Below are positions 13,829-62,321 of a stretch of 64,000 nucleotides of DNA, piece after piece (the first letter of the stretch is position 1; each line of letters starts with the position of its first letter). The DNA is taken from contig JACOXT010000005.1 of assembly GCA_016182235.1 (NCBI GenBank), positions 677 through 64,676 on the forward strand, given 5' to 3'. This DNA comes from Candidatus Levyibacteriota bacterium. Its GTDB lineage: Bacteria > Patescibacteriota > Microgenomatia > Levybacterales > UBA12049. Below the pieces are notes generated by a model. That model saw only the letters and a list, made by a program, of their open reading frames with translations, was not told the origin of the DNA and did not search any database. Position numbers and translations under genes: made by a program.

Positions 13829-15040
13829 ATGGATAAGATTGGGGAATTATTGACTAGGGGAGTTGAAAAGATTTACCCATCAAAAGAAGAGCTTGAGAAA
13901 GCATTAAGAAGCGGGAGAAAATTAAAACTTTATCAAGGTTTTGATCCCACTGGTATTCAGCTTCATATCGGACACATGGTTGGACTTCGAAAACTAAGGC
14001 AGTGGCAGGATTTAGGACACCATGTTATTTTTTTAATAGGAGATGGGACAGGATTGGCAGGTGATCCCTCGGGAAAAAAACACAAAAGAGAAAAATTTCT
14101 AACTCGAGAGGAACTTCGCAAGAATTCTACTGATTATATAAAGCAAGCAGGAAAAATAGTAAGATTTGAGGAAGTAAATCCGGTTGAGATATTGTTCAAT
14201 GGTGACTGGTTAACCAAACTAATACTTTCTGACATTTTGGAAATTGCGGGACATTTTACACTTCAACAGCTCTCTGAAAGAGATTTGTTTACTGACCGAA
14301 TAAAAAGAGGAGAGGATGTTAATCTCCGCGAATTTTTGTATCCGCTACTTCAGGCATACGATTCAGTGGCGATGGATGTAGATTTAGAAATCGGCGGAAC
14401 GGACCAAACTTTCAATATGCTTTGCGGAAGATCATTAATAAAACAAATGAAGAATAAAGATAAATTTGTTATGACAACTCCACTCTTAACTGACTCAAAA
14501 GGTGTGAAAATCGGCAAAACCGAAGGCAATGTAATTGCCCTAACAGACAAGCCGGAAGATCTTTTTGGTAAAATCATGGCACTTCCTGACGATGTAACAT
14601 TAAAAGGATTTGAGTATTTAACGAGTGTGCCAATGGACGAGGTAAAAAAAATTGAACAAAAAATGGATTCCATGAGTCAAAAGAAACGCTTAGCATTTGA
14701 GATTGTAAAAGAATTAAATTCCGACAATGAAGCTAAAAAGGCACAGATTTATTTTGAAAAAACAGTCCAAGAAAAAGAAAAACCATCGGAAATAAAAGCA
14801 GTTGAGTTGCCCACAAGTTTCACATCATCCGCAACTATAGCAGAGGTTCTCAATGCCATAGGCACAGTAAGTAGTATATCTGAGGGCAAAAGGGTAACGA
14901 TTCAAGGAGGTACATCAATAAACGATCAGAGAATTACAGATCCAAATGAACCAATCTACCCCTTTCTAAAAACAGGAGAAGCTTTAGTTCAAACCGGCAA
15001 ACATAAATTTGTAAAAATCATAACTACTCCTGATTCATAA
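13829..15040 (+). CDS. tyrS: tyrosyl-tRNA synthetase
   Basis: HIGHMVGL (HIGH), KIGKTEG (KMSKS-like), C-terminal S4-like domain; track ORF starts at TTG 13823, ATG 13829 preferred. Confidence 0.93.
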   Translation: MDKIGELLTRGVEKIYPSKEELEKALRSGRKLKLYQGFDPTGIQLHIGHMVGLRKLRQWQDLGHHVIFLIGDGTGLAGDPSGKKHKREKFLTREELRKNSTDYIKQAGKIVRFEEVNPVEILFNGDWLTKLILSDILEIAGHFTLQQLSERDLFTDRIKRGEDVNLREFLYPLLQAYDSVAMDVDLEIGGTDQTFNMLCGRSLIKQMKNKDKFVMTTPLLTDSKGVKIGKTEGNVIALTDKPEDLFGKIMALPDDVTLKGFEYLTSVPMDEVKKIEQKMDSMSQKKRLAFEIVKELNSDNEAKKAQIYFEKTVQEKEKPSEIKAVELPTSFTSSATIAEVLNAIGTVSSISEGKRVTIQGGTSINDQRITDPNEPIYPFLKTGEALVQTGKHKFVKIITTPDS

Positions 15041-15067
15041 TTCTTGATTCATGATTCACAATTCATC
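15033..15067. repeat. 7-nt period array (attcNNN x5) across the tyrS stop / purH 5' region
   Basis: attc at 15033, 15040, 15047, 15054, 15061. Confidence 0.7.
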
Positions 15068-15070
15068 TTT

Positions 15071-16663
15071 ATGAAATACGCTCTCTTAAGTGTTTTTGAT
15101 AAAACAGGAATTATTGAACTTGCGAAAAAACTTTTAGATTTAGGGTACAAAATCATCTCAACTGGCGGAACTGCAAAAGAACTTATTAAAAAAAATATTA
15201 AAGTAATACCTGTTCAGGAAATTACTGGGAACCCGGAAAGCTTCGATGGTAGGATGAAGACAATTAGTTTTGAGATTGAATCGGGTATTCTTTTTGATCG
15301 AACAAATAAATCCCACGTTAAAGAAGCAAAAGACCTAAATATAAAGCCAATCGATATTGTTGTCTGCAATCTTTATCCATTTGAAAAAACGATTGCAAAT
15401 CCTAAAGTGTCAGTTGAAACTGCAGTTGAAAATATTGACGTTGGCGGTCCAACTATGATACGTGCTGCCGCGAAGAATTTTAAAAATGTCTTGGTCGTGG
15501 TCGATCCAAAGGATTATCAAAGAGTAATTTCGTTTTGTCATTCTGAGTCACGCCATAGGCGGACGAAGAATCTCGAGAGATCCTTCGCTAATGCTCAGGA
15601 TGACATCCGAAGAGAGCTTGCGGCAAAAGCCTTTGCCCATTTGTCTCTATATGATTCACAAATTGCAAAATTCTTAGAGAAAGAGATTTTTCCTTCGGAA
15701 ATAACCATTCCAGGAAGAAAAGTTAACGATCTTAGATATGGAGAAAATCCTCATCAAAAAGCCTCCTTCTATTTAGAACCAAACACAAACTCTCTCTTTA
15801 AAAACCTTAAAAAAATCGTCGGACGGGAATTATCCTTCGTCAATCTAACCGATATAAACGCAGGGTTAGAATCAGTGAGGCTATTTAGAGAACCTTGTGC
15901 TGCCATAATTAAGCATAATAGCCCATGCGGTATTGCATTAGGAAAAAACATTTCTCAGGCCTTAGAAAGGGCAATTGATGCAGATCCCGAGTCTGCGTTT
16001 GGTGGGACAACTGTACTGAATAAGCCCATGGATTTAAAAACAGCAAAAGTAATTGGAGAATTCAAAAATAAAAAGAGAGCGAATATTGATATAATTGCAG
16101 CGCCGCAAATTACAAAAGACGCCTTGGAATATTTAGTAGAGGTTAGAAAAAGTATGGGAATCTATTCCTTCGGAAAAACTATGAACTATGAACCAAGAGC
16201 TATGAACATCAAGCACATCGCTGGAGGATTTATTCTGCAAACACCTGATAACGATATTGAAAAAGGATTTAGGGCTTGGAAGGTGGTAACAAGGAAGAAA
16301 CCTTCTCCAGAAGAAATAAAACAGATGAAAATTGCTTGGAAATTTATTTCAAGAATTAGGTCGAATGCCGTCATCGTTGTTGACAAAGATTTGCCAATGA
16401 CTCGAGGAATAGGATCTGGACAAACTTCTAGAATTAAGTCTACGAGAATTGCTTTAGAACAGGGAGGAAAATATTCTCAAGACGGCATCCTTGCCAGTGA
16501 CAGCTTCTTTCCTTTCGATGATAGTGTAAAACTTGCTGCCAAATACGGCATTTCGGGAATTGTTCAGCAAGGGGGATCAATAAACGACATTCTCTCAATC
16601 GAAGCCGCAAACAACGCAAATGTCTCCATGGTTTTTACCGGCAGACGCGCCTTCTGGCACTAG
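15071..16663 (+). CDS. purH: bifunctional AICAR transformylase / IMP cyclohydrolase
   Basis: MKYALLSVFDKTGI, STGGTAK, DIVVCNLYPF, NIDVGGPTMIRAAAKN, RYGENPHQ, KHNSPCG, GSGQTSR, ASDSFFPF; track ORF begins at 15044 inside the heptad array. Confidence 0.93.
   Translation: MKYALLSVFDKTGIIELAKKLLDLGYKIISTGGTAKELIKKNIKVIPVQEITGNPESFDGRMKTISFEIESGILFDRTNKSHVKEAKDLNIKPIDIVVCNLYPFEKTIANPKVSVETAVENIDVGGPTMIRAAAKNFKNVLVVVDPKDYQRVISFCHSESRHRRTKNLERSFANAQDDIRRELAAKAFAHLSLYDSQIAKFLEKEIFPSEITIPGRKVNDLRYGENPHQKASFYLEPNTNSLFKNLKKIVGRELSFVNLTDINAGLESVRLFREPCAAIIKHNSPCGIALGKNISQALERAIDADPESAFGGTTVLNKPMDLKTAKVIGEFKNKKRANIDIIAAPQITKDALEYLVEVRKSMGIYSFGKTMNYEPRAMNIKHIAGGFILQTPDNDIEKGFRAWKVVTRKKPSPEEIKQMKIAWKFISRIRSNAVIVVDKDLPMTRGIGSGQTSRIKSTRIALEQGGKYSQDGILASDSFFPFDDSVKLAAKYGISGIVQQGGSINDILSIEAANNANVSMVFTGRRAFWH
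15537..15604. repeat. 68-bp GC-rich palindromic element read in frame inside purH
   Basis: termini gtcattctgag / ctcaggatgac (10 of 11 complementary), inner cgaagaatctc / gagatccttcg; translated as ..HSESRHRRTKNLERSFANAQDD.. in the inter-domain linker. Confidence 0.65.
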
Positions 16664-16797: not shown

Positions 16798-18885
16798 ATG
16801 AACCTTCAAACACCTATTCCGAAAGGTGGATCTAACTTTAAGCTCTATGCGCGAAGACTGGAAAGGCTTGGAGTAAAGATTTTTGAAGATTTGCTTTATC
16901 ATATTCCTTCACGTTACGAAGACTACTCTTTAATTTCAAAAATTGGACAAGTGCAGGCCGGAGAAACCGTAACTGTAAGAGGTACGGTTTTGGAGATAAA
17001 AAATGAATACACAAGGGGGTTCAAAAATTTACAAAAAGCAAAGTTATCCGACGACACAGGAGAAATAAATATTGTTTGGTTTAACCAGCCTTATTTAGTA
17101 AGGATTATACACGCAAACGACAATATTTCTATCTCAGGGAAAGTGAACTGGTTTTCCAATAAACTGGTTCTGCAATCTCCTGAATATGAATTAGCTAATG
17201 AATCGTTTTCACTTCATACGGGAAGATTGGTCCCCATATATCCAGAGACTAAAGGAGTATCGTCTAAATGGTTACGCCGCCAAATATACAATGTATTGAA
17301 AGATAGCAGACAAAATTTGACTGAATATCTTCCGGACTCAATTATAAATAATTATGACTTATTAGGAGTAAATGAGGCAATTGAACAAATTCACTTTCCG
17401 AAAACCTTGGAAAATGCCGAAAAAGCGAAAAAAAGACTAGCTTTTGACGAATTTTTTTTAATGCACCTTTCTTCTATACAAAGAAGGTCAACTTGGAGAA
17501 AAACTCTAGTTAGCAATCCTTACTCAATCTCAAATTACAAGAAAGAAATTGAAGATTTTTGGAAAAAACTTCCCTTTACGCTTACAAATGCCCAGAAAAG
17601 GGGAGTGGGTGAGATATTTAAAGACTTGGCAGGAAAAAAACCAATGAACAGGCTTCTGGAAGGGGACGTAGGAAGCGGAAAAACAGTAGTATCTGCAATA
17701 GCGATGTTTCTAAATTTTCTTAATGGTTACCAGTCAGTCTTTATGGCGCCAACTGAAATATTAGCTATTCAACATTATAATACAATATCCAAACTCTTGT
17801 CACCCTTTGGGATTAAAGTCCAGTTATTTACATCTAGTTCAAATTTCAAGAAGAATAAAGATTTAAGATTAAAGATTAAAGAATCAGATCATAAATCATC
17901 CATCGTTAATCATAAATCTCCTACCAATTTTGGTGTAGCTGTCGGCACACATGCATTATTGTATGAAAAAATTGAATTTGAAAAATTAGGTTTGGTTGTA
18001 ATTGACGAACAGCAACGTTTTGGTGTTGAGCAAAGAGCAATTATAAGACGAAAGGGCAAAAATCCTCACCTTCTTACAATGACCGCAACTCCCATACCAA
18101 GAACTATTGCCTTGACTTTGTATGGAGATTTGGATCTTTCTCTTTTGGATGAGATGCCAAAAGGAAGAAAATATATTAAAACATGGCTTGTTGGAAGAGA
18201 AAAAAGAATATCAGCCTACCGATGGATTGAAAAACAAATAAAAGAAACGAATAGTCAAGTATTTATAATCTGTCCTTTTATAGAGGAATCTGAAACTATG
18301 CAGACAGTTAAAGCCGCAAGTCGAGAATATGAATACTTGAAAAAAGACGTTTTTAAAAAATTTAAGCTTGGACTTCTGCATGGAAAACTTAAAACAAGGG
18401 ATAAAGATAAAGTTCTTCAAGACTTTAGAGATAAAAAGATTGACATCTTGGTTGCAACACCGGTTGTTGAGGTCGGGATTGATATTCCAAACGCCACTAT
18501 TATTGTAATTGAAGCATCAGAGCGTTTCGGACTAGCACAGTTACATCAATTAAGAGGAAGGGTAGGAAGGGGAAACAAACAATCATATTGTCTTTTGTTT
18601 ACTGAAAGTAAAAACCAAGAAACTTTAGAAAGGCTTAAGGCGATGGAAAGATATCACGTTGGAGCAGAACTCGCGGAGCTTGATCTCAAGATGAGAGGAC
18701 CGGGAGAGATTTATGGAACCATGCAGCACGGAAGACGTATGCTTAAAGTCGCCAGCTTTTCAGACTTTGAATTAATCAAAAAAACGAGATTGTGCGCTCA
18801 AAAAATCTTCCCTAGTCTAGATGAATATCCACTCCTGAAAGAAAAACTAAAAACCCTAAACCTAAAACAAGTCTCCCCAGACTAA
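16798..18885 (+). CDS. recG: ATP-dependent DNA helicase RecG
   Basis: wedge/OB N-terminus, LTNAQKR, GDVGSGKT (Walker A), VIDEQQRFG (DEQH), TATPIPRT, QLHQLRGRVGRG. Confidence 0.93.
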   Translation: MNLQTPIPKGGSNFKLYARRLERLGVKIFEDLLYHIPSRYEDYSLISKIGQVQAGETVTVRGTVLEIKNEYTRGFKNLQKAKLSDDTGEINIVWFNQPYLVRIIHANDNISISGKVNWFSNKLVLQSPEYELANESFSLHTGRLVPIYPETKGVSSKWLRRQIYNVLKDSRQNLTEYLPDSIINNYDLLGVNEAIEQIHFPKTLENAEKAKKRLAFDEFFLMHLSSIQRRSTWRKTLVSNPYSISNYKKEIEDFWKKLPFTLTNAQKRGVGEIFKDLAGKKPMNRLLEGDVGSGKTVVSAIAMFLNFLNGYQSVFMAPTEILAIQHYNTISKLLSPFGIKVQLFTSSSNFKKNKDLRLKIKESDHKSSIVNHKSPTNFGVAVGTHALLYEKIEFEKLGLVVIDEQQRFGVEQRAIIRRKGKNPHLLTMTATPIPRTIALTLYGDLDLSLLDEMPKGRKYIKTWLVGREKRISAYRWIEKQIKETNSQVFIICPFIEESETMQTVKAASREYEYLKKDVFKKFKLGLLHGKLKTRDKDKVLQDFRDKKIDILVATPVVEVGIDIPNATIIVIEASERFGLAQLHQLRGRVGRGNKQSYCLLFTESKNQETLERLKAMERYHVGAELAELDLKMRGPGEIYGTMQHGRRMLKVASFSDFELIKKTRLCAQKIFPSLDEYPLLKEKLKTLNLKQVSPD
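17870..17928. repeat. 7-nt period AT-rich array read in frame inside recG
   Basis: gatt/gaat at 17870, 17877, 17884, 17891 then aatc at 17904, 17918, 17925; translated KDLRLKIKESDHKSSIVNHKS. Confidence 0.55.
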
Positions 18886-20210: not shown

Positions 20211-20216
20211 ACCTTC

Positions 20217-23697: not shown

Positions 23698-24582
23698 TTA
23701 ATTCGAGGGTACAAATAAACCATATGAAATATATGGCAGGAAAGCTTGTGAAAATCCTTTAAAAACAGAAATCCTACGACTCGCTTCTCCGCTTTCTCCG
23801 GTTGAAGTGATCTGGTAACCTTGAGATGGGAAGGTCGCTCCTCCAACTTCCGCTCCAATAAAAGTACTTTTATAAACAGGAATTGCTCGAACAAATATTC
23901 CTTCTGTAATATTTAAGTTTGTTGTTTCAAATTGAAGAGTCTTTCCTCCAATAGGCGTAGGTGATGTCGATGCCGGACTAAACCCATTTCCCCTATGGGT
24001 ATTACATGGATCAAATACACTTCGTGTTGAAGATACATTGAGAGAAGAAGTTCCACGTATCACTATTACTTCTATAGCAGCTGGCCAATTTGATGGATTT
24101 GAATCATCTGCGCATATCTCACCCGCTACGCCCCAATGCAATGTTAAATCCAAAGTTGCCCCGGGTACAGAAAATTCGATTTCGTCATTAGTGGGATCTT
24201 GATTCGCCAGCCAAATGTCTACTCCCTCGCTTTGCGGAATCAGACTTCCTCCATTTACCAGGAGTAGATTTGCACCTGTGCCAACCTCAACCACATTGGT
24301 ATCGTATCCAGTTAAAGGGGAGAGGCTTCCGCTGCTCAATCCTACTTGAGTATCTTGCAAGGCCCTTTCTATCCCTGCCTCGGCTGCGGCTAGCGCTTTT
24401 TGAGATTCTGCCTCCTCGGTTGAAGTCCTTATGTTTGTGATGCTTCGTCCGGCAATAGACAAACCAATAGTTAATGAAACAATAATTACCAATATAACAA
24501 TCAAAAGAACCTGCCCACTCTCCCAACTTTGAACTTTGCATTTTGAACTTTGAACTGCTTGAAGCATATATTTAGAATACAA
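23698..24582 (-). CDS. PilX-like / minor-pilin-like protein
   Basis: N-terminal SGQVLLIVILVIIVSLTIGLSIAG hydrophobic segment as in PilX_N; located between the pilin genes and pilM; N-terminus encoded by a heptad array. Confidence 0.5.
   Translation of the reverse strand: MYSKYMLQAVQSSKCKVQSWESGQVLLIVILVIIVSLTIGLSIAGRSITNIRTSTEEAESQKALAAAEAGIERALQDTQVGLSSGSLSPLTGYDTNVVEVGTGANLLLVNGGSLIPQSEGVDIWLANQDPTNDEIEFSVPGATLDLTLHWGVAGEICADDSNPSNWPAAIEVIVIRGTSSLNVSSTRSVFDPCNTHRGNGFSPASTSPTPIGGKTLQFETTNLNITEGIFVRAIPVYKSTFIGAEVGGATFPSQGYQITSTGESGEASRRISVFKGFSQAFLPYISYGLFVPSN
24525..24557. repeat. 7-nt period array (aactttg-like x5) at the 5' end of the PilX-like ORF
   Basis: aac at 24525, 24532, 24546, 24553 (variant unit at 24539). 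Confidence 0.6.
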
Positions 24583-24609: not shown

Positions 24610-25236
24610 TTATCTTTGATAATTTCTCATTGTCACTGAAGTTTCAAAAAGGATCGGCGGATTGGAACTTTCAACAAGATTACTTGATCCTTTTGGTTTA
24701 AGCTCAAACTTTATTCCAATTACGGGCACATCGGATGTCCCTGACACAGTGCAAGTGAAAGAACAACTCGGCACCTCTATGGTAGATGTATCAATAAAAG
24801 ATCCGCTGTCTGAAGCAATAGTAATGGGAGTTCCAGCACAAGAATATATGATTGGAGTGCTATTAAATGGCTTTATTCTAATATATTTATAAGGTGTTGT
24901 TGCTCCTGCCGGACACTGCATGATAGCTGGAGTTGCGAAATTATCGTCACTAAATCCATTAAATGACTCTGCAAACCCTATTGTTCTCCCGATTTGGGAA
25001 ATCGCGTAATTGCCATTCTGTCTTATGTTCTCAATAGTATTTGTTTTATTTGTTCCGCGAAGAGAAAATGTGATAACACCTACTACGATTGACCCAATTG
25101 CGACTAGAACAGTTATTACTACAACAAGTTCGATTAGCGTAAAACCTTCGGTTTTAAGATTAATGATTGATGAATAATGATTAATGATCTCACCAGAATA
25201 TTTCTTTCTATTCATAAATCTTAAATCTTTAATCAT
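24610..25236 (-). CDS. type IV pilin-like protein (minor pilin)
   Basis: KTEGFTLIELVVVITVLVAIG prepilin cleavage/methylation motif plus hydrophobic helix; start uncertain (Met codons at 25236 and 25215, both inside a repeat array). Confidence 0.8.
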   Translation of the reverse strand: MIKDLRFMNRKKYSGEIINHYSSIINLKTEGFTLIELVVVITVLVAIGSIVVGVITFSLRGTNKTNTIENIRQNGNYAISQIGRTIGFAESFNGFSDDNFATPAIMQCPAGATTPYKYIRIKPFNSTPIIYSCAGTPITIASDSGSFIDTSTIEVPSCSFTCTVSGTSDVPVIGIKFELKPKGSSNLVESSNPPILFETSVTMRNYQR

Positions 25237-25244
25237 AAATCACT
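25210..25244. repeat. 7-nt period array (aatcNNN x5) covering the start region of the 24610 pilin gene
   Basis: attcata/aatctta/aatcttt/aatcata/aatcact. Confidence 0.65.
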
Positions 25245-25726: not shown

Positions 25727-26304
25727 TGAATTTTTATTCTTCCTAATTTGTCAATCACAATAAGCTTACTATCCGATCCTGATATTAGCTTAACTTGCCA
25801 CGGATAACAGATAGGTGGAGAGCAAGAGCATCCGCTGTTTTCAACGACCCCACCCTCTAACACCGGAAATAAAAACGAGTGGTCTGTTCCAGAACAAGCT
25901 TCCTCAAAATCAACAGAATCTGGAAGACTTCCTGCAGAAATTATATGAGTTGTTGTGCAATACGCAATCAGTTGATAGTCTTTGTTGCTTAACATATCTA
26001 CTCCGTATCCCTCAAGAGCATTAGCGCCACATGTGTTTGGCTTTACCTGAGACAAAGCGCGCGATTTTGCCAGATTAAGCGTATTTGCAACGTCAATGGC
26101 CGCATTCTGAAGAACTTTGGTCTCGTTATAGCTATTAAACGAAGCTATACCAAATGCGGACAAAATACTCATAACAGAAAAAACAACAATTAATTCGATC
26201 AACGTAAAACCTTGGGATTTTATATTGCCATATTGTTTTACTGTCGTATTGTTTTTTTTAGCAATGTAGCAATGTAGCAATGTAGCAATTTCTGTAAGGA
26301 TCAT
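25723..26304 (-). CDS. type IV pilin-like protein (minor pilin)
   Basis: KSQGFTLIELIVVFSVMSILSAF; long apparent leader encoded partly by the gcaatgta repeat, true start uncertain. Confidence 0.75.
   Translation of the reverse strand: MILTEIATLLHCYIAKKNNTTVKQYGNIKSQGFTLIELIVVFSVMSILSAFGIASFNSYNETKVLQNAAIDVANTLNLAKSRALSQVKPNTCGANALEGYGVDMLSNKDYQLIAYCTTTHIISAGSLPDSVDFEEACSGTDHSFLFPVLEGGVVENSGCSCSPPICYPWQVKLISGSDSKLIVIDKLGRIKIQ
26261..26290. repeat. 8-nt tandem repeat gcaatgta x3 (+gcaatt)
   Basis: gcaat at 26261, 26269, 26277, 26285; lies in the 5' end of the 25723-26304 ORF. Confidence 0.75.
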
Positions 26305-26777
26305 GGGTTATTAACAGTGAAAGACCAATTTGTAGTTCCTCCCGTGCAGAGAGCATCATTTGAAGGATCTTTTTGAGAGTCATTAACATTTTCTAAACAT
26401 GAGACTATGCTGTATGTAGCGCCTCCTCCTCCCACTGCATAAGTATATACATAATCACCTGTATTTAATGGGTCGCATGGAATTTCCCGCATGTAGATTA
26501 CTGCTCCTGCGCTATCGGTGAAAGGGTTAGTGGGATCATCGCAAGTATTTGGAAAATCGCCTGGATCACCACCAACCACAACTGGATATAAGCCACTATC
26601 TGATCTGTAAAATTCCAGAGCCGAACGAATTTGACCAAGGTCAGATTTACGCACTCCGTCTCTGGTTCTTTGCCTTACTCCAACAAAATTAGCCGTAAGA
26701 AGCCCAGCCAAAAGCCCGATGATGATAATTGCCACCAAAAGCTCAATCAAAGTAAATCCTCTGGATTTACGAATCAT
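26301..26777 (-). CDS. GspG/PulG-like pseudopilin / type IV pilin-like protein
   Basis: MIRKSRGFTLIELLVAIIIIGLLAG from ATG 26777 gives a canonical short leader; track ORF extends to 26846 through heptad repeats. Confidence 0.8.
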   Translation of the reverse strand: MIRKSRGFTLIELLVAIIIIGLLAGLLTANFVGVRQRTRDGVRKSDLGQIRSALEFYRSDSGLYPVVVGGDPGDFPNTCDDPTNPFTDSAGAVIYMREIPCDPLNTGDYVYTYAVGGGGATYSIVSCLENVNDSQKDPSNDALCTGGTTNWSFTVNNP

Positions 26778-26798
26778 GAATAACGAATCATGAATTAT
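26771..26798. repeat. 7-nt period array (gaatcat/gaataac/gaatcat/gaattat)
   Basis: gaat at 26771, 26778, 26785, 26792. Confidence 0.65.
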
Positions 26799-26819
26799 GG
26801 TTATTAGGTTCTTTTTTTT

Positions 26820-26851
26820 ATTCATAATTCTTAATTCCTGATTCATAATTC
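26820..26851. repeat. 7-nt period array (attcNNN x4-5) between two pilin genes
   Basis: attc at 26820, 26827, 26834, 26841, 26848. Confidence 0.65.
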
Positions 26852-26855
26852 AATA

Positions 26856-27358: not shown

Positions 27359-28149
27359 TTATATAGGAAATAGGAATCCCAGCATTATCTGCATGATTTG
27401 CTCTCCTAAAAATATAGTTAATAATGTCCCAAAAACTAAAAAGGGACCAAAAGGAATTTTTGTTCCGTGAAGTCTTTTTCTCTTCCATATAATTAGTATG
27501 CACCCGACAATGGCTCCTGTCAAGAACGATATGTACAAGGCAACAGCTATCTTTGGGAATCCCAAAACCAGCCCTAGAAGAAATGACAACTTCACATCGC
27601 CAAACCCCATCCCGCGACCTTTGGTTATCAGAAATAAGAACAAGAAGAAAAGAAAAGCCCCACCCCCGGAAAGCAAATGATTTAAGATTAAAGAATAATG
27701 ATTAAAGAATAGATATGGAAAAGAAACGAAGATCGAGGGAGCTACGATCGCGTCGGGAATTATCCCGTATTTCAAATCAGTAAAAAAAACCACAATTAAT
27801 GACGAGATAATAATAAAATAGTAAACCAAAGTAATATAATCCAAAATTCTTAATTCCTGATTCATGATTCTTGCTCCGAGAAAAACAAATACTAACACGA
27901 ACAAGATTCCCGTTGTTAACTCAACTACCGGATAATACAGAGATAGGGGAGTATGGCAATAGCGGCATTTGCCTCTTAGGATCAAGAACGAAAATAAAGG
28001 AATAAGATCATACCATGCTAAATCTTTCTTGCATTTATCGCAGTGAGATCTTCCTCCAAATACTCCTTCGCCTCTTGGCAATCTGTCAACCAACACATTC
28101 AAAAAACTCCCAATTGCAGTTCCAACTAAAAAGATAAAAATAATCTCCA
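27359..28149 (-). CDS. pilD: prepilin peptidase / N-methyltransferase PilD
   Basis: GSFLNVLVDRLP, Cys-rich CDKCKKDL..CRYC, FTDLKYGIIPD, GMGFGDVKL (two catalytic Asp boxes); track ORF reaches 28243 and overlaps the RAYT gene and a REP; GTG 28149 is a plausible start. Confidence 0.85.
27679..27712. repeat. 7-nt period array read in frame inside pilD
   Basis: gatt/gaat at 27679, 27686, 27693, 27700, 27707; encodes ..NHYSLILNHLL.. Confidence 0.55.
27846..27873. repeat. 7-nt period array (attcNNN x4) read in frame inside pilD
   Basis: attc at 27846, 27853, 27860, 27867; encodes ..RIMNQELRIL.., nearly the same DNA as 26820-26851. Confidence 0.6.
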
Positions 28150-36441: not shown

Positions 36442-36465
36442 TGAAGTATGAAGTTTGAAGTATAT
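36442..36465. repeat. 7-nt period array (tgaagta/tgaagtt/tgaagta) spanning a start codon
   Basis: gaag at 36443, 36450, 36457. Confidence 0.55.
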
Positions 36466-37143
36466 ATATTACCTGGCTGGGCCTACTCAATAGAGAAATG
36501 GGAACCTTTTGTCCGCTTATTAAAACAAAAAGGGGTTGAAGTAAATCTTCTCAAAATTCCCGGCTTAACTGAAAAACTCGATAAAGTTTGGAATGTTAAT
36601 GATTATGTTGAATGGTTGAGAAAAAAAACTAACAATAAAATAATTCTCATCGGTCATTCAAATGGCGGGCGAATCGCTCTTAATTTTGTAGCAAAATATC
36701 CAAATCTGGTTCCGAACTTAGTTTTAATAGACAGCGCTGGGATTTATCATGATGATCTAGCTATTCGGCTGAAGCGGCTGATTTTTAAAAGCATTGCAAA
36801 AACTGCCAAAAAAATAACCAACACTCAAAAGCTTAAAGATTTCTTATATAAAATAGTAGGGGAGAACGATTACAGAAATGCAACTCAAAATATGAAACAA
36901 ACTATGCTTAATCTTATTAATTCCGATAAACTCCTAAGCTTTGGTAATATCACAACGCCAACTTTAATTATCTGGGGGAAAAACGATAAAATTACTCGTC
37001 TCTCTGACGCAAAACTCATAAATAAGCTAATTAAAAATTCAACGCTTCATATCATAGATGGCGCAAGACACTCGCCCCAGTTTACAAATCCGGTTGAGGT
37101 AGTCAACACTATAGTCAAAGAAATTAACAATAAAACAATCTAA
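36448..37143 (+). CDS. alpha/beta-fold hydrolase
   Basis: nucleophile elbow GHSNGG, C-terminal DG..H (IIDGARHSP) catalytic pattern. Confidence 0.75.
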   Translation: MKFEVYILPGWAYSIEKWEPFVRLLKQKGVEVNLLKIPGLTEKLDKVWNVNDYVEWLRKKTNNKIILIGHSNGGRIALNFVAKYPNLVPNLVLIDSAGIYHDDLAIRLKRLIFKSIAKTAKKITNTQKLKDFLYKIVGENDYRNATQNMKQTMLNLINSDKLLSFGNITTPTLIIWGKNDKITRLSDAKLINKLIKNSTLHIIDGARHSPQFTNPVEVVNTIVKEINNKTI

Positions 37144-37157
37144 CAATATAACAATTA
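37126..37157. repeat. 8-nt period array (acaatNNN x4)
   Basis: acaat at 37126, 37134, 37142, 37150; spans the stop of the hydrolase gene; related to the array at 3211-3242. Confidence 0.6.
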
Positions 37158-42138: not shown

Positions 42139-42659
42139 TGGACATTAAGAAATTAAACGCCGGGAAAAATGCGCCGGAAGAAATAAATGTTTTTATAGAA
42201 ATCCCCCAAGGAGTAAGTGTAAAGTATGAATTAGATAAAGATAGCGGCGTAATCTTTGTGGATAGATTTCTTTTTACAGAAATGGAATATCCATTTAATT
42301 ATGGTTTTGTGCCGGGAACTTTGGCCATGGATGGAGATCCTGTAGATGTTTTAGTGTTATCAAGCAAACCTGTAATACCAGGCGTTGTAATTCTTTCAAA
42401 ACCAATCGGAATGCTTGAGATGGAGGACGAGAAGGGAATTGATAACAAGGTAATTGCAGTTCCTGTTCCAAAAGTCGACCAAAAATTCAAAAATTATAAT
42501 GATATCAATGATATCCCAATCAAAACAAAAGAGGAAATCAAATACTTTTTCGAAAATTACAAAAAAACCGAACCGGGAAAATGGGTCAAGGTAAAAGAGT
42601 GGAAAGGAAGGGAAGCGGCGATTGAAGAAATAAGAAAAGCCATTGGAAACAAAAGTTAA
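42138..42659 (+). CDS. ppa: inorganic pyrophosphatase (family I)
   Basis: [35 protein letters not shown]. Confidence 0.92.
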
Positions 42660-42772
42660 AAGTCAAAGGTTAAAATTCAAAATTACAAGTAAAAATTCAA
42701 AAGTAAAGAATCTGAAAATTTTAACTTTTAAGTTGTATTTTTGACTTTTGATTTTTGAGTTTTGAGTTTATT
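42652..42772. repeat. about 120-bp array of 17 heptads, A-rich half then T-rich half (imperfect long inverted repeat)
   Basis: aaagtta/aaagtca/aaggtta/aaattca/aaattac/aagtaaa/aattcaa/aagtaaa/gaatctg/aaaattt/taacttt/taagttg/tattttt/gactttt/gattttt/gagtttt/gagttta; between ppa and gyrA. Confidence 0.7.
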
Positions 42773-42775
42773 ATT

Positions 42776-45274
42776 ATGCAAATTGGTAAATTACAACAAA
42801 CTGGAATTAGCGCAGAGGTCAAGAGGGCATACCTTGACTATGCAATGTCTGTTATTGTTTCCCGCGCGCTTCCTGATGTTAGAGATGGACTTAAACCAGT
42901 CCATAGACGTATTCTTTTCGCGATGCACGAGTTAAATCTAACGCACAACGCGAAATATGCAAAATCAGCAAAGATTGTTGGGGAGGTAATGGGAAAATAC
43001 CATCCTCATGGAGATTTACCAATATACGATGCATTAGTTCGCTTGGCTCAGGATTTCTCGATGCGTTATCCTTTGGTTGATGGCCAAGGAAATTATGGCT
43101 CAACTGATGGAGATCCGCCGGCTGCTATGCGTTATACAGAAGCGCGTCTGGCCGCAATCACCGCCGAGATGCTTTTGGATTTGGATAAAGAAACAGTTAG
43201 CCATCTGCCGAATTTTGACGCGACGCTTCAGGAACCGGCATATCTTCCTGCCAGACTCCCCAATCTTCTTTTGATGGGGTCTGAGGGTATCGCGGTTGGT
43301 ATGGCTACAAAAATTCCTCCTCACAATCTTGGTGAATTGGTAGACGCGATTATTTTTACGATTGGCAAAACAAAAGTATCAAAATCGTTGAATGGTGAAT
43401 CAAAATCTTTAACGCTGACGAGTAACGTCACTGTTGGTGAGCTCTTGGAATATATTAAAGGCCCGGATTTCCCAACGGCCGGGGCAATTTATGACATTTC
43501 TGAAATTACAAATGTGTATACAACCGGACGGGGAAGAATAATTATCCGAGGACGCGCAGAGATCGAAGATATAGGGCAGGGTAAATCGGCAATTATTATT
43601 ACCGAACTCCCTTATCAAGTCAACAAAGCTCTTATGGTTGCTCGTATTGCTGATTTAGCCCGTGAAAAGAAGATAGAAGGAATCTCGGATCTAAGGGATG
43701 AATCTGACAGACACGGAATAAGAGTGGTTGTGGAACTCAAGCGTGACACCGCGCCAAAAAGAGTATTGAATAACCTATTTAAACACACGAGTCTTCAATC
43801 AATTTTTCCCGCTAATATTGTTGCTTTGGTTGACGGTACACCTCAAACGTTAAATCTTAAAACTATTCTTGAGGAATATCTTAAACATAGATATATTGTT
43901 GTCACCAAACGTTCCGAATTTGAGTTAAAGCAGGCCAAGGCAAGGCTTCATATTCTTGAGGGACTAAAAACTGCAGTCGATCAAATAGATGCTGTTATAA
44001 GAACAATTCGTGAATCCAAAGACCAAGATTCCGCAAAGAAGAATTTGATCATTAAATTTAAACTTACCGAGATCCAAGCGGTTGCGATTTTGGATATGCA
44101 GCTTCGCCGACTCGCGGCTTTGGAACGGCAAAAAATAGAAGACGAGCTTATCATGATAAAAGAAGCAATTGCTTATTTGGAAGACCTGCTTTCTCATTCA
44201 GAAAAAATACTAAGCGTAATCAAAGAAGAATTGAAAGTTCTAAAAGAAAGGTATCAGGACCAGAGGCGCACAAAGGTATATAAAAGTAAAGTCGGAGAGT
44301 TTTCCGATGAAGATCTTATTCCAAATGAATCAACGGTTATAACTATTACCGATACCGGATATATAAAGCGCCAAAGCCTCAGTAGTTTCAGAGTCCAGCA
44401 TAGGGGAGGAAAAGGAGTTAAGGGAATGACTACCAAAGAGGAGGATGGAATTTTGAATATTCGCTATGCGCAAACCCATGATAATATTTTGTTTTTTACA
44501 AACAAAGGAAAAGTCTACCAGCTCAGGGCCTTTGAAATTGCGGAGTCCCAAAGAACAAGTAAGGGCACCGCCATTGTGAATCTTATCAATATAGAACAAA
44601 ATGAGAGAGTCGAATCCTTTATAAATTACAGCGTGGGAAAAGGAAGCGAAGAGTTCCCATATAAATATGTGTTTCTTACCACCAAAAATGGGACTGTTAA
44701 AAAGACCGCGTTATCAGAATTTGAAAATATAAGGAGAAATGGGATTATCGCAATTAAACTAGACAAAGGAGATGAGCTTGTGTGGAGTAAGTTAACCAAC
44801 GGCGATAATGAAGTTATTCTCACGACTCACGACGGAAAGGCAATAAGATTTTCTGAGAAGTCTGTAAGACCTTTGGGCAGAAGTACCACAGGAGTTCACG
44901 GGATAAAGCTAAAAGAGGGCGACCAAGTAACGGGAATGGACATTATCAAAAAATCAGATAAAGCAGACCTCCTTACAATAATGGAGAATGGGCTGGGTAA
45001 AAAAACTTCTGTCGACCAGTTCAGAGGACAAACTAGGGCCGGACAAGGCGTAAAAGTCGCAAAGGTAACATCGAAAACAGGAAAGGTCGCATTCGCTCAG
45101 GTAATTCCGCCAAATTGCAAAAGCTTAATTATTACATCCAAAAAAGGACAAGTCGTAAAGCTTGAAATTTCTTCAGTACCAAAACGTTCTCGAAACACAC
45201 AGGGAGTGTTTTTAATGAGATTCTCAAACAAAACACCCGACCATATAACTTCTGCAACTTGCATTGAAGAATGA
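42776..45274 (+). CDS. gyrA: DNA gyrase subunit A
   Basis: [44 protein letters not shown] (catalytic Tyr), C-terminal beta-pinwheel repeats; track start TTG 42755 lies in the heptad array, ATG 42776 preferred. Confidence 0.95.
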
Positions 45275-46131
45275 AAATCAATGGATCGGAAATCGCAAAT
45301 AAGATTCACATCGAACTTCGAAAAAAGGTAAAAAAGCTAAAAGAGAAAAAAATCACGCCCCATCTTGCGGTAATTCTCATCGGCAGTGATCCCGCATCAA
45401 CTGCGTATGTTCGGCAAAAAGAATTAAAATCAAAAGCAATTAGTGTTAATACAACAATAGCAAAATTTCCTTCCGGTGTCTCCCAAAAAAATATTTTGAA
45501 AACAATTCAGCAATATAACAATGATAACAATATTCACGGAATTATTGTTCAGCGTCCTCTGCCTTCGCATATTGATTCGAATGTAATCTCAAAATCCATA
45601 GATCCCAAAAAGGATGTGGATGGCTTTCACCCAAAATCCAAATTTCAACCACCTCTCGCTCTGGCGGTATTGAAGATTTTGAAAAATATATTCGTCCACC
45701 TTCGAGGTGGGGTTGCGCCTGCGGCACACCTCGAAGGTGAATTTCGTGAATGGTTAATCCTCCAAAATATTGTCGTTATTGGCAAGGGTGAAACCGGTGG
45801 TAAACCTGTAATTGAAATGCTTAAAAAAATAGGAGCAAAGCCTTTGATTGTCGACAGTAAAACTCAAAATCCCCCTAACATAACTAAAACTGCAGATATA
45901 ATAATCTCTGCGGTTGGCAAAGAAAATACAATAAAGCCAGAAATGATCAAAAAAAATTCTATTTTAATTAGCATTGGTTTGTCAAAAGGAAAAGACGGAA
46001 AACTTCACGGGGATTATGATGAAGACAAGATCAAAAACATTGCATCCTTTTACACCCCAACCCCAGGAGGAGTAGGCCCCATCAATGTAGCTATGCTTTT
46101 GAAAAATTTAGTAAAAGCGTCCGAAAGTTAA
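45271..46131 (+). CDS. folD: bifunctional methylenetetrahydrofolate dehydrogenase / methenyl-THF cyclohydrolase
   Basis: [40 protein letters not shown]; carries an in-frame 44-bp GC-rich element. Confidence 0.9.
45696..45739. repeat. 44-bp GC-rich hairpin element, in frame in folD
   Basis: ccaccttcgaggtggggttgcgcctgcggcacacctcgaaggtg; 13-bp arms caccttcgaggtg / cacctcgaaggtg; exact reverse complement of 48008-48051. Confidence 0.9.
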
Positions 46132-47405: not shown

Positions 47406-48517
47406 TTGGAAAACTTATTCTGGAGGATGCTTCGGAATTTGAAGGCATAAGCTTAGGAGCTCCTCGCTCAATTTCTGGCGAGGTAGTTTTCTCAACAGGA
47501 ATGGTAGGATATCCAGAAAGTTTAACTGATCCTTCATACAAAGGACAAATTTTAATATTTACTTATCCTTTGATTGGAAATTACGGAATTCCCGACAAGA
47601 AGTATTGGGAGTCGGATAAAATCCAAGTCTCAGGATTTATCGTCTCAAATTATATTGATACTCCTTATCATCAAGAAATGACTTTGACTCTAAGAAAATG
47701 GGCAGTTAAAGAGAACGTACCTTTTCTTGAAATTACAGATACAAGATTATTAACTCAAAAAATAAGGACAAAAGGAACAATGCTCGGGAAAATAATCACT
47801 AAGGACAATATTAATTTTTATGATCCAAATAAAGAAAACCTTGTCGCCCAAGTTTCAACAAAAAAAGTTATTCAAAAAGGCAACGGTAAAAAAACGGTTA
47901 TTTTAATAGATTGTGGAGCAAAACAAAACATAGAAAGATCTTTGTTGAAAAGGGGAGTAAGAGTCATAACTGTTCCGTGGAATTTCGATCCATTCGACCC
48001 GAAGGTACACCTTCGAGGTGTGCCGCAGGCGCAACCCCACCTCGAAGGTGGCAGGCTGAAGCAAAGCGAAAGCCATGACTCCTTCGAGGTGAAATTCGAT
48101 GGGATTGTCGTCTCCAATGGTCCGGGTGACCCGAAAATGGCAACAAAAACAATCGAAACCATCCGAAAAGCTCTTGCCTCCAAAATCCCAGTTCTTGGAA
48201 TTTGCCTTGGACATCAATTACTTGCATTGGCGGGAGGAGGGGATACCCAAAAATTAAAATTTGGCCACAGAAGCCAAAATCAGCCTTGCGTATTGGAAAA
48301 AACAAAAAGGTGCTATATCACAACTCAAAACCATGGTTTTGAAGTTTCTAAAATTCCCAAGGGATTTCATAAATGGTTTACGAACGCAAATGATAATTCA
48401 AATGAGGGCATAATCCACCAAAAACTCCCATTTATGTCAGTGCAATTTCATCCTGAAGCCGCCCCCGGCCCCGAAGATACAGGATGGATATTCGACTATT
48501 TCCTGGAAAAAATATGA
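47402..48517 (+). CDS. carA: carbamoyl-phosphate synthase small (glutaminase) subunit
   Basis: GEVVFSTGMVGYPESLTDPSY, GICLGHQLLALA (catalytic Cys), FGHRSQNQP, QFHPEA; carries an in-frame GC-rich insertion. Confidence 0.92.
   Translation: MIGKLILEDASEFEGISLGAPRSISGEVVFSTGMVGYPESLTDPSYKGQILIFTYPLIGNYGIPDKKYWESDKIQVSGFIVSNYIDTPYHQEMTLTLRKWAVKENVPFLEITDTRLLTQKIRTKGTMLGKIITKDNINFYDPNKENLVAQVSTKKVIQKGNGKKTVILIDCGAKQNIERSLLKRGVRVITVPWNFDPFDPKVHLRGVPQAQPHLEGGRLKQSESHDSFEVKFDGIVVSNGPGDPKMATKTIETIRKALASKIPVLGICLGHQLLALAGGGDTQKLKFGHRSQNQPCVLEKTKRCYITTQNHGFEVSKIPKGFHKWFTNANDNSNEGIIHQKLPFMSVQFHPEAAPGPEDTGWIFDYFLEKI
48008..48051. repeat. 44-bp GC-rich hairpin element, in frame in carA (inverted relative to the folD copy)
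   Basis: caccttcgaggtgtgccgcaggcgcaaccccacctcgaaggtgg, 44/44 identical to the reverse complement of 45696-45739; extra arm copies at 47999-48007 and 48083-48093. Confidence 0.9.
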
Positions 48518-51733: not shown

Positions 51734-52816
51734 ATGTCTTTAATAACTTTGCTTGGTCTTATTGACCCCCATGTTCACCTAAGGGATCCAAGACAAACCC
51801 ATAAGGAAGATTTTTATACAGGCACTTGTGCTGCATTGGCCGGAGGCTTTACAACAATCCTTGATATGCCAAACAATAAAACTCCCATAACAACTTTCAG
51901 GGTCTTGAATGAGAAAATCAAAATTGCCAAAGAAAAAATAGTTTGCGATGTGGGATTTTATTTTGGCTCTCTCGGAGATAATCTAGATGAATTTGAGAAA
52001 GTTAAAAATAAAGTTTTAGGTCTTAAGTTATATCTCAACGAAACCACTGGAAATCTTTTAATAGATAAAATGGAATTAGAAAAAATATTTCTTGCCTGGT
52101 CTCAAAGTATGTCACTACATAGTAACATACTTTCGACCAAACCAATTCTTATACACGCGGAAGAAAAAATGCTAAATGTTGTTATTGATTTAGTTAAGAA
52201 ATTGGGAAACAAAATTCATGTCTGCCATATAAGCACTGTTTCTGATTTAACACAAATTATTAAAGCAAAAGAGGAAGGCTTACCAATTACTTGCGGCGTC
52301 ACTCCTCACCATTTATTTTTAACTGAAAACGATGTCAAAACTCTTGGTCCATTTGGCAAAATGAAACCAGGATTAAAAAGTAAAAAAGATCAGGATTTTT
52401 TGTGGAAAAATTTAAAATATATTGATGTAATAGAATCTGATCATGCTCCGCATACGGTCAATGAAAAGAGGGGAGAGGGGACAACCTACGGCGTTCCCGG
52501 GCTTGAGACTACGCTTCCGCTTTTATTAACTGCAGTTTCTGAGAAACGAATAGAGATTGATGATATTATGCGACTCTGCCACAAAAACACAGCCAAAATC
52601 TTTGGCATCAAATCTGACCCGCAAACAAAAATCGAGATTAATCTTCATACTTCATACTTCATACTTCATACTTCATTATTTACGAAATGCGGCTGGTCAC
52701 CATTTGAAGGTTGGAAAGTGAAAGGAAAAATAGAAAGAGTTTTTATAAGAGGAGAAAAAGTTTTTGAAGACGGTAAGGTCTTAGTAAAACCAGGATTTGG
52801 AAAAATTCTTATCTAG
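51734..52816 (+). CDS. pyrC: dihydroorotase
   Basis: DPHVHLRDP, TILDMPN, ESDHAPH; contains an in-frame heptanucleotide array. Confidence 0.88.
   Translation: MSLITLLGLIDPHVHLRDPRQTHKEDFYTGTCAALAGGFTTILDMPNNKTPITTFRVLNEKIKIAKEKIVCDVGFYFGSLGDNLDEFEKVKNKVLGLKLYLNETTGNLLIDKMELEKIFLAWSQSMSLHSNILSTKPILIHAEEKMLNVVIDLVKKLGNKIHVCHISTVSDLTQIIKAKEEGLPITCGVTPHHLFLTENDVKTLGPFGKMKPGLKSKKDQDFLWKNLKYIDVIESDHAPHTVNEKRGEGTTYGVPGLETTLPLLLTAVSEKRIEIDDIMRLCHKNTAKIFGIKSDPQTKIEINLHTSYFILHTSLFTKCGWSPFEGWKVKGKIERVFIRGEKVFEDGKVLVKPGFGKILI
52643..52677. repeat. heptanucleotide tandem repeat cttcata x4 + cttcatt, in frame inside pyrC
   Basis: units start at 52643, 52650, 52657, 52664, 52671; translated ..LHTSYFILHTSLF.. 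Confidence 0.85.
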
Positions 52817-53465: not shown

Positions 53466-53812
53466 TTATAATTTATGCTGTGGTTTTGAAAAAGCAATTT
53501 TAGCAAAACGCACAGTCATCTCGGTTAAACCTAATACTCTTAATTCCTCTTCATTGGCATTCCTGATCTGTCCTATAAAACACCCAGCTCTTGCCAGTTT
53601 TCCTATGGAAATATTATAGGCACTCTTGACCTGCCTGGGTAACAACTCATATCCCCTCCAACCCTTATTAACAAGATATTCTTGGCTACTTCTTTAACTA
53701 AATTATTAAACTCCTGACCTTGTTTTGGATTTACCCCAGAAAGACATTCTACTATCTGCCTTCTAATATCCCTAATATCATGGATTTTCTCAGTTGCACG
53801 CTGTTCTATCAT
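53466..53812 (-). pseudogene. possible frameshifted small gene next to the recombinase
   Basis: track ORF 53603-53812 (69 aa) overlaps a second open frame 53466-53693 (..QEYLVNKGWRGYELLPRQVKSAYNISIGKLARAGCFIGQIRNANEEELRVLGLTEMTV..); together about 115-130 aa; family not recognised. Confidence 0.3.
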
Positions 53813-61574: not shown

Positions 61575-62321
61575 TCAATTAACCACAGAAGATAGGCGTG
61601 AAATGAAATCTTGAAGCTCTTGAGGCAAATTAGACTCGAATGAAATCATCTTACCATTTTTTGGATGGTAAAAGGAGATTTTGGATGCATGTAAAAATAT
61701 GCGGGATAAGAGCTTTCTGTCAACTTTTGATGTCTTTCTTCCTGCATAAAGAGGGTCAGCAAAAACCGGGTGGTTTATGTATTTTAAATGCACCCTAATC
61801 TGATGCGTCCTCCCAGTCTTAGGATAAAGTTCAAGCAAACTTAAAGGCTCTCTATTTTTTCCCGATACATAATACATAATACTTAATACTTTATACTTCG
61901 TCACGGCTTCTCTTCCCCCGGCAACTACCCCAAATCTTCTCCTATTCCATGGCAACCTCCCTACCGAAACATTAATCTCACCCTCATTTTTTTCTATTTT
62001 TCCATGAACTAATGCAAGATATGTTTTTTTGACTTTTCTCTCTTTAAATTGAGATTGCAGATTATCAAAGCTATCAGGAGTTTTGGCGACAATCAGAATT
62101 CCCGAGGTCTCCTTATCAAGCCTATGAACAATCCCTGCCCGTTTATAAAAATCCGATTCCTCATCAATTGAAAATTGAAAATTGAAAATTGAAAATTTAT
62201 CTTCCACCCAATCCTGTACCGTCCTCTCCCCTTTTGTTGTATCAGATCTATTCACAACAACTCCTGACGGCTTGTCCAAAACCAAAATATCATGATCCTC
62301 GTACAAAATCTTTATCTCCAT
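61575..62321 (-). CDS. RluA-family pseudouridine synthase (RluD-like, no S4 domain)
   Basis: ILYEDHDILVLDKPSG, HRLDKETSGILIVAK (catalytic Asp), THQIRVHL; contains an in-frame heptanucleotide array. Confidence 0.88.
   Translation of the reverse strand: MEIKILYEDHDILVLDKPSGVVVNRSDTTKGERTVQDWVEDKFSIFNFQFSIDEESDFYKRAGIVHRLDKETSGILIVAKTPDSFDNLQSQFKERKVKKTYLALVHGKIEKNEGEINVSVGRLPWNRRRFGVVAGGREAVTKYKVLSIMYYVSGKNREPLSLLELYPKTGRTHQIRVHLKYINHPVFADPLYAGRKTSKVDRKLLSRIFLHASKISFYHPKNGKMISFESNLPQELQDFISRLSSVVN
62166..62198. repeat. heptanucleotide tandem repeat aaaattg x4, in frame inside the RluA-family gene
   Basis: ttg at 62168, 62175, 62182, 62189; translated (minus strand) ..FSIFNFQFSID.. Confidence 0.8.

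Follow-up and report, generated by a model that had tools for sequence, protein, structure and literature searches.

How does a perfect tandem repeat of a heptanucleotide come to lie inside an intact housekeeping gene, and what keeps it there? The question arises at the dihydroorotase gene (pyrC) of a Candidatus Levyibacteriota bacterium, within a 64,000-nt stretch of contig JACOXT010000005.1 that we call the window; loci and contigs of relatives fetched for comparison carry L-numbers (L001 and so on). A sequence-only reading had placed five cttcata-type units at 52643-52677 inside this open reading frame (ORF), taken the segment for an insertion, and proposed that it was either frozen or subject to slippage-driven on/off switching. 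We find that the position and length of the array are conserved across relatives while its units turn over, and that the signal lies at the DNA level. The gene and its array are:

51734..52816, + strand: pyrC ORF, a CAD-type dihydroorotase (DHOase) of 360 aa, intact, with metal-binding motifs present
52643..52676, + strand: pyrC array, (CTTCATA)x4.9, defined by Tandem Repeats Finder (TRF), sequence and ORF mapping

The coordinates, unit and translation first described are correct, as judged by TRF, ORF mapping and Pfam. TRF gives period 7, unit CTTCATA, 4.9 copies and 100 % matches over 52643-52676; base 52677 is T, which makes the fifth unit CTTCATT. The array is translated as ..EINLHTSYFILHTSLFTKCGW.. 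(also written ..KIEINLHTSYFILHTSLFTKCGWSPFEG..; PyrC residues 304-316), and bases 52643..52676 by themselves encode LHTSYFILHTS(L), residues 304-315. The product matches Pfam Amidohydro_1, and its closest solved structure is the human CAD DHOase domain (E 3e-90, residues 2-357). The Levybacteria enzyme is of the short, CAD-like type, bacterial class I enzymes matching at E about 1e-40 against 3e-90 for human CAD. The closest pyrC relatives come from metagenome-assembled genomes labelled Candidatus Levybacteria or Levyibacteriota (Microgenomates, within the candidate phyla radiation, CPR), and sequences identical to PyrC (P0121) and RecG of the window occur on a 78,784-nt NCBI contig of a Ca. 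Levybacteria metagenome-assembled genome. Chance is rejected as the origin of the array, because shuffles of the window never yield one like it.

The array is not an insertion. PyrC proteins of other Microgenomates, of Saccharibacteria and of Chloroflexi align across its residues without gaps, human CAD does the same, and none of the 87 homologues in a multiple alignment has a gap at residues 299-326. In the AlphaFold2 model (predicted local distance difference test, pLDDT, 91.3; predicted template modelling score, pTM, 0.91) residues 299-309 form a beta strand, and residues 312-314 make a short helical turn; the two blocks have pLDDT values of 96 and 92, and the segment belongs to a C-terminal beta domain built jointly with N-terminal strands. 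Given these gap-free alignments and the ordered segment, the supposed insertion is refuted by orthologues from other phyla, and what might have been an insert in a loop lies instead in a strand modelled at pLDDT about 96. The same evidence excludes an intein or intron. Programmed ribosomal frameshifting or bypass is also rejected, since a single continuous frame runs collinear with the solved DHOase through and past the array, and CTTCATA does not match the slippery X XXY YYZ pattern.

At the same codons, relatives carry different heptamers. In about 20 pyrC orthologues, DNA identity at a lag of 7 nt is at least 0.53 over the 13 array codons, against about 0.3 in all others. The unit is CTTCATA in the window and L001; CATCATT/AATTCAT in L002, L004, L043, L083 and L084; AATCATA in L003 and L091; GATTCAT/ACTTCAT in L081, L086 and L093; GAAATTG/GAAATTT in L087; and CTAAATA, CAAAATT and CCCTAAA in L007, L031 and L119, respectively. 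Among 116 PyrC homologues of at least 61 % identity, some 60 % carry a peptide periodic over seven residues (for example LNSSFIIHNSSLF, IHKSYIINHKSLF, LNSEFLILNSELH and LNSKFLILNSKLL), and about 35 have the non-periodic, outgroup-like LSxEYxIENKNLF. Such outgroup-like sequences (..EEYIIENKSLFTKC) persist within the clade, and a weak xxxxATA/xxxxATT proto-period is already present in them. Since a lag of 7 nt joins different codon positions, the period cannot come from selection on the peptide and must originate at the nucleic-acid level. A seven-residue protein repeat is therefore rejected as the cause; the peptides of a second array, described below for an RluA-family gene, are likewise unrelated between lineages.

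Comparison of units within and between genomes points in the same direction. In array-bearing pyrC, units average 0.72 identity to one another within an array and 0.57 to the unit at the same position in other species; the corresponding values are 0.33 and 0.61 where orthologues have no array. Of the 105 species pairs, 71 show higher identity within each of the two arrays than between orthologous units. We interpret this pattern as the signature of concerted evolution at constant length. The neighbour-joining tree of pyrC is too poorly resolved to separate a single from a multiple origin of the array; the unrelated units of the distant L007, L031 and L119 suggest recurrent origin.

Length, by contrast with the units, does not change. 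All of the approximately 20 array-bearing orthologues compared as DNA have a segment of identical length and an open frame, and no length variant or frameshifted allele occurs among them or among the 87 aligned and 116 protein homologues. The option of a frozen array thus holds for its length and fails for its sequence, the units differing by lineage (CTTCATA, CATCATT, AATCATA, GAAATTG, CTAAATA, CCCTAAA).

The pyrC array belongs to a larger class. We counted arrays with TRF (at least 4 copies) and with our own period scorer, taking dinucleotide-preserving shuffles of the window as the null. TRF finds 15 such arrays of period 7 in the 64 kb; the other long arrays that it reports are only two of period 8 and one trinucleotide run, and the only two long non-heptamer arrays listed for the window are at 26259-26289 and 37125-37155. 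By our scorer the window holds 8 strict period-7 arrays against 0.0 in shuffles, and none of periods 4-6 or 9-11. The 24 related loci, 337 kb in all, contain 55 period-7 arrays, compared with 0, 5, 8, 14, 2 and 4 for periods 5, 6, 8, 9, 10 and 11. The period-7 excess is thus genome-wide, and the class is found across Candidatus Levybacteria genomes. A period-7 signal was also seen in cyanobacterial and Anaerolineae loci and in one Saccharibacteria locus, and was absent from most other loci fetched.

The 55 arrays are AT-rich and draw on 31 different canonical units. They measure 17-36 nt, almost all of them 24-36 nt, and the mode is at 31-34 nt. Thirty-five of them (64 %) lie within ORFs, several of these housekeeping or essential. 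The other 20 are in or border the roughly 10 % of DNA that is non-coding, where density per kb is about five times higher. Apart from those in rluA, pheS and recG and the inverted pairs treated below, the arrays listed in the window are:

15031..15066, + strand: (TGATTCA)x5.1, spanning the tyrS stop and the purH start
16177..16207, + strand: (AACTATG)x4.4, inside purH
24525..24556, - strand: (AACTTTG)x4.6, close to the 5' end of a pilus-operon ORF
26259..26289, - strand: perfect period-8 array (TAGCAATG)x3.9, at the N-terminus of a pilin-like ORF
27679..27708, - strand: (GATTAAA)x4.3, inside the prepilin peptidase gene, with a second array at 27845-27870
36442..36463, + strand: short array (TGAAGTA)x3.1, at the start of an alpha/beta-hydrolase gene

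The unit of the last of these is the reverse complement of the pyrC unit. We judge this to be coincidence: the window has about 18 arrays, a number at which chance alone should yield one complementary pair, and the host gene is an unrelated alpha/beta hydrolase. Pairing in trans between the two arrays is rejected on these grounds.

Conservation of position with or without change of unit recurs in three other genes:

8012-9049: pheS, with a heptamer remnant at codons 74-87
16798..18885, + strand: recG ORF, 695 aa
17851..17882, + strand: recG array, 5' arm, (AAGATTA)x4.6, 88 % matches, part of an in-frame insertion
17888..17918, + strand: recG array, 3' arm, (ATCATAA)x4.4, 70 % matches, partly complementary to the 5' arm
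61575..62321, - strand: RluA-family pseudouridine synthase ORF with arrays A and B (Pfam PseudoU_synth_2, E 5e-33)
61865..61898, - strand: rluA array A, (ATACTTA)x4.9, 92 % matches
62166..62197, - strand: rluA array B, (AATTGAA)x4.6 on the + strand, perfect, translated as KFSIFNFQFSI

Array A of rluA overlaps a conserved motif (TKYKVLSIKYYV, or TKYKVLSI(K/M)YYV), and its unit and position are kept in five genomes. Array B had earlier been given as aaaattg x4 at 62166-62198; the array is real, with its end adjusted to 62197 and its unit to AATTGAA x4.6, a rotation of the same heptamer. Its position is shared among relatives and its units differ: (AATTGAA)n in the window and, identically, in L085, (TTTTGAC)n in L081 and (AACTTTG)n in L082, with a longer (AAATCCC/AAATTCC)n array in L001 and L098. 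Despite these differences array B is perfect in several lineages, and its peptides are unrelated (FSIFNFQFSI in the window, KVKSQKSKVK in L081). In the more distant L098 the rluA gene (about 19396-20268) also has a large additional segment past the array-A position, with a GTTCTCA-type heptamer array, that encodes SSQLSANSQPVLSSSVPTN.

In three genomes the essential gene pheS specifies a protein of 345 aa, with residues 74-87 encoded by a perfect (AAATATC)5.4 in L168, by (CTCTCAT)n in L166 and, in the window, by a degenerate remnant, CTTAAGA CTCAAGA GTCAAAA. RecG is different in that its segment does add length: it is about 13 residues longer than T. maritima RecG, and is missing from Levybacteria RecGs of 672 aa. 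Here the insertion proposed for the heptamer segments does apply, in the form of two arrays (17851-17882 and 17888-17918) rather than the single block at 17870-17928 first described. Extra residues relative to orthologues, a trait of Rickettsia palindromic elements, are thus present at the recG arrays and absent at pyrC.

The arrays fall into two classes, a minority of inverted pairs that form hairpins and solitary arrays such as that of pyrC. Of all 55, 13 have a reverse-complement partner within 400 nt; direct partners number zero, as do partners in shuffles. In addition to recG, the pairs listed in the window are:

25154..25242, - strand: (TTAATGA)x5.1 and (TCATAAA)x4.4, at the 5' end of the ORF at 24610..25236
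26771..26852, - strand: (GAATCAT)x4.1 and (ATTCATA)x4.7, a hairpin of about 30 bp
42651..42769, + strand: (AAAAGTY)x7.9 and (TTTTGAS)x4.4, between ppa and gyrA, a long hairpin

The second pair encodes part of a pilin leader peptide (MNKKKNLITIIHDSLFMIRKSRG followed by FTLIE). The hairpin predicted there (26755-26870, - strand; RNA fold z -5.0) includes the AGGA and AUG of the pilin gene at 26301..26846 and may act as a translational gate for it. The region 42640-42785 folds at z -3.7. The recG insert is an inverted pair in five lineages, with three unit families (GAATCAN/NTGATTC, AAGTAGT/ACTACTT and AAGATTA/TAATCAT). Its hairpin scores z -2.4 in the window and -3.1 to -4.9 in four relatives with other unit families, and the two arms co-vary through the three families. 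The pyrC array is solitary, with the lowest reverse-complement-partner score of the 55 (5.0); no local hairpin partner was found for it, and it is unpaired in the RNA fold (z +0.74). Rfam covariance models gave 0 matches at the gathering threshold over the whole window, in which no known RNA or tRNA was found.

What process could produce such arrays? With about even confidence, we read the pyrC repeat as a stable, translated, length-neutral heptanucleotide micro-array, homogenised at the DNA level by 7-nt misalignment and filtered by frame and fold; both the misalignment mechanism and the absence of function are what we infer. Within a proto-repeat, the nascent strand would pair transiently one 7-nt unit out of register, copy a few bases from the neighbouring unit and then realign. 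Variants would in this way pass from unit to unit by templated conversion, that is, by concerted evolution, with no bases gained or lost. In genes, a version would survive only if it kept the frame, had no stop codon in any of the three phases and left the few constrained residues intact. The process that makes the arrays and keeps them periodic would act on DNA, not on protein.

Several observations fit this account. Because only Tyr/Phe308, Ile310 and Leu315-Phe316 are conserved in the 13-residue beta segment of the C-terminal 'adjacent' domain, the remainder varying among orthologues, almost any stop-free, AT-rich unit should be tolerated at the pyrC site. Length is kept even in ordered segments and essential genes, so ordinary gain and loss of units cannot be the main route. 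The AT-richness of the arrays and their roughly fivefold non-coding density are as expected of a mutational product filtered by selection.

Counter to this stand several points. Transient misalignment mutagenesis is an established process, and a length-preserving form acting on 7-nt units would be an extension of it. Intergenic arrays are also narrowly 24-36 nt long, although no reading frame limits them there, and pure slippage should also give copy-number variants, of which we saw none. Within groups sharing an array type, codons for the same amino acid are identical in 87 % of cases inside the pyrC array and 58 % in the rest of the gene (62 % and 51 % in orthologues without the array). Since sequences were grouped by array type, this test is biased towards identity, and the raised synonymous identity is suggestive, not conclusive. 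Finally, L081 and L093 share 39 of 39 array bases, imperfect units included, at a third-position identity of 0.49 over the gene; frequent homogenisation would erase imperfect units, so this identity looks more like selection or recombination. A stretch of 50 nt there is identical in L081, L086 and L093.

The main rival, which we consider possible but less probable, is that the arrays are selected, cis-acting nucleic-acid elements. They could offer regularly spaced binding places, on RNA or single-stranded DNA, to proteins that take about 7 nt each, such as those of the oligonucleotide/oligosaccharide-binding (OB)-fold or cold-shock type. The inverted pairs would then be hairpins controlling translation or RNase III processing, and the pyrC array an embedded element around which the protein was recoded. 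Arguing for selection are the conserved position of arrays across species in pyrC, rluA and pheS, the higher synonymous-site conservation inside arrays, the narrow length of 4-5 units in coding and non-coding DNA alike, and the 13 of 55 arrays with a reverse-complement partner, against no direct partner and none in shuffles. The hairpins at z -3.7 and -5.0, one of which encloses the ribosome-binding site and AUG of the pilin gene, and the co-varying recG arms, whose five versions fold at z -2.4 to -4.9, are also in its favour, as is the literature on translational regulation by heptamers and on CspB, which binds one heptamer per protein (PMC4679880). Arguing against it, there is no common unit: 31 canonical units among 55 arrays exclude a sequence-specific reader. 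No strand or composition bias relative to transcription was apparent when the array list was inspected by eye, the pyrC array is partnerless and unpaired, many close relatives without it look intact, Rfam models match nothing in the window, and the synonymous-site test is biased by the choice of groups. A bolder version, to which we attach the same limited credence, is that Levybacteria, and perhaps others, have an active process or a class of selected elements by which periodic tracts near 32 nt (5 x 7 nt) in length are written and maintained at set positions, overwriting the coding sequence of essential proteins. Tracts in inverted pairs would form hairpins whose 'slippery' arms co-evolve and which gate translation or RNA processing, and the array in pyrC would be a hidden functional signal and no neutral repeat.

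Far less probable is a link to small mobile elements, with the arrays as their footprints, target sites or terminal repeats; the elements could be hairpins with heptamer-array arms, resembling miniature inverted-repeat transposable elements (MITEs), or the GC-rich palindromes of these genomes. Rickettsia palindromic elements and mitochondrial GC clusters are selfish palindromes, found in-frame in genes. Two kinds of sequence described here resemble Rickettsia palindromic elements in being tolerated and translated within conserved proteins: the hairpin insert of recG, and the GC-rich palindromes of folD, carA and relatives' pyrC. The array in pyrC itself is not a palindrome and not an insertion. 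Support for mobility comes from the recG segment, a present/absent in-frame insertion of two inverted arrays, from GC-rich palindromic inserts exactly within arrays of L082 rluA and L121 pyrC, and from the recurrence of an nATTCAT / ATGAATn unit family in pyrC, recG, pilin leaders and intergenic DNA. Against it, the arrays of pyrC, pheS and rluA-A add no length, and arrays and GC-rich inserts may merely share protein sites that tolerate change. Visual comparison, as opposed to a systematic search, revealed no internal sequence shared by the hairpin loops of the window's pairs, and no target-site duplications were noticed, again short of a systematic search for them.

The weakest explanation, and a very improbable one, is that pyrC is a contingency locus, in which slipped-strand mispairing would add or remove 7-nt units, the resulting frameshifts turning the gene off and on. 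Phase-variable contingency loci include those with Haemophilus tetranucleotide repeats and the 7-bp repeats of hmw. They share with the pyrC array a non-triplet tandem unit at a place where a change of copy number would alter expression; here the 7-nt repeat is perfect and in-frame, and no ON/OFF copy-number alleles are seen, the tract is short (about 5 units), and its length is conserved over deep divergence. Nor does the gene have a surface, restriction-modification or niche function: it encodes a housekeeping dihydroorotase, and sister arrays lie in pheS, recG, rluA and purH. Arrays equally perfect occur in essential single-copy genes (pheS, an aminoacyl-tRNA synthetase gene, and recG), and on/off switching finds no positive support in comparisons between genomes.

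What does favour a switch, besides the perfect tract of non-triplet units, comes from assemblies. Logan contig L163 (run SRR12113420), the one with the 3' end of pyrC, breaks off inside the array, at window position 52647 (terminal 31-mer ATACTTCATACTTCATACTTCATACTTCATT); L162 stops at 26284, inside the perfect period-8 array. Two of eight Logan contig ends thus lie inside perfect arrays, the other six being in ordinary, mostly conserved sequence, and full-length PyrC was called in neither Logan assembly. Contigs found via the neighbouring integrase also end in or before the pyrC array. A 34-nt period-7 array is not itself repetitive at k=31, so the break implies that another sequence in the sample shares pure-repeat k-mers. 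This could be a longer allele, whose longer pure-repeat k-mer would break a k=31 graph there; the break is equally explained by a co-occurring relative with the same array and different flanks, and other contig ends fall in conserved genes. Moreover, two Logan assemblies, made from different runs, match the window at 100 % identity for 15.8 kb and 12.1 kb, so that eight arrays other than that of pyrC are base-identical in three assemblies. Metagenome and genome scans for near-identical strains in which to compare pyrC copy number gave nothing closer than 80 %, and exact look-ups of PyrC, of CarA and of CarB with either of two starts matched no record.

Known heptamer systems offer partial parallels. 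According to Mrazek et al. (2007), as summarised in PMC4679880 and PMC4692102, heptanucleotide repeats are over-represented in some prokaryotes, polymerase slippage is a proposed rationale for 7 nt, and units that are multiples of three are the most likely in coding regions. Cyanobacterial heptamers and the GGGNATC and TAACTGA families are mainly intergenic, with one or few units and variable copy number (PMC4679880, PMC4692102). Going by these summaries, the long simple sequence repeats (LSSRs) of prokaryotes resemble the Levybacteria arrays in the genome-wide excess of 7-nt units over other periods, in sporadic taxonomy and in the proposed link to slippage; they differ in that 64 % of Levybacteria arrays are inside ORFs and those of pyrC, rluA-A and pheS are length-neutral. 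Also unlike LSSRs, the Levybacteria arrays lie at conserved codons, with unit turnover and a copy number held narrowly at 3.5-5. The short tandemly repeated repetitive (STRR) sequences of cyanobacteria and the GGGNATC repeats of Xanthomonas and Nostoc (PMC4692102) are similarly dispersed over the chromosome, prefer about 4 units and are often within 50 bp of ORF ends, whereas the Levybacteria arrays are AT-rich, have dozens of units and are often intragenic. In other words, of the traits of LSSR and STRR repeats, the Levybacteria arrays show the genome-wide 7-nt excess, and show neither the restriction to one or few units per genome nor the mainly intergenic location (35 of 55 are in ORFs).

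The TAACTGA direct repeats of marine Beggiatoaceae come in 2-6 copies, frequently just upstream of a start codon, and a role in translational regulation has been suggested for them; like some Levybacteria arrays, they are translatable in one orientation only (PMC4679880). They differ in having one favoured unit and an essentially intergenic location, and neither co-varying inverted pairs nor length-neutral intragenic arrays are described for them (PMC4679880). We found no report of heptamer repeats in CPR/Patescibacteria in the searchable literature. What is new here is that arrays lie inside genes without lengthening them, that they hold their position as their units are exchanged, and that the arms of inverted pairs co-vary.

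A separate set of elements accompanies the arrays. In this genome of 37 % GC, GC-rich palindromic elements lie within ORFs at 45693-45739 (folD) and 48008-48058 (carA), and also at 2552-2635. The folD and carA copies are mutual reverse complements over about 44 nt (CCACCTTCGAGGTGGGGTTGCGCCTGCGGCACACCTCGAAGGTG), and the folD element occupies a gap of about 45 residues between two Pfam domains. Related GC-rich in-frame inserts, resembling Rickettsia palindromic elements, occur in pyrC of L004, L043, L083 and L085. Others split arrays: one of 42 nt in rluA array B of L082 (19556-19600), alongside (AACTTTG)n, and one of 24 nt in pyrC of L121 (11029-11062), the array halves summing to normal length in each case. 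Either arrays are preferred insertion targets, or both kinds of sequence share protein sites that tolerate change.

Two further features of the window concern other genes. At about 53682-53688 the window lacks 75 nt that are present in Logan contigs L163 and L164 from the same population. The missing stretch is flanked by a 7-nt direct repeat, GCTACTT, and without it a 142-aa ORF is broken into fragments; the cause is either a deletion variant that arose by microhomology or a difference in assembly. Elsewhere, a Mur ligase has its middle and C-terminal domains on two overlapping ORFs (35181-36098 and 36086-36433), which may reflect a frameshift or a split gene.

Non-triplet repeats within genes are usually taken to be contingency switches, or unstable junk that is purged from essential genes. 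The Levybacteria arrays instead persist for long periods at the same codons of housekeeping and essential genes, their length kept and their units replaced in concert. In practical terms, the arrays break assemblies made at k=31, and they place odd low-complexity peptides in annotations (for example LNSSFIIHNSS, RIMNQESRI, DSLFMIHNS), and they could be misread in annotation as frameshift-prone pseudogenes. If the arrays are selected, they would represent a new class of overlapping nucleic-acid signal in coding DNA. If they are purely mutational, they would be an unusually clean case of length-preserving concerted evolution (molecular drive) acting on coding sequence, and would point to something particular in the replication or repair of CPR bacteria.

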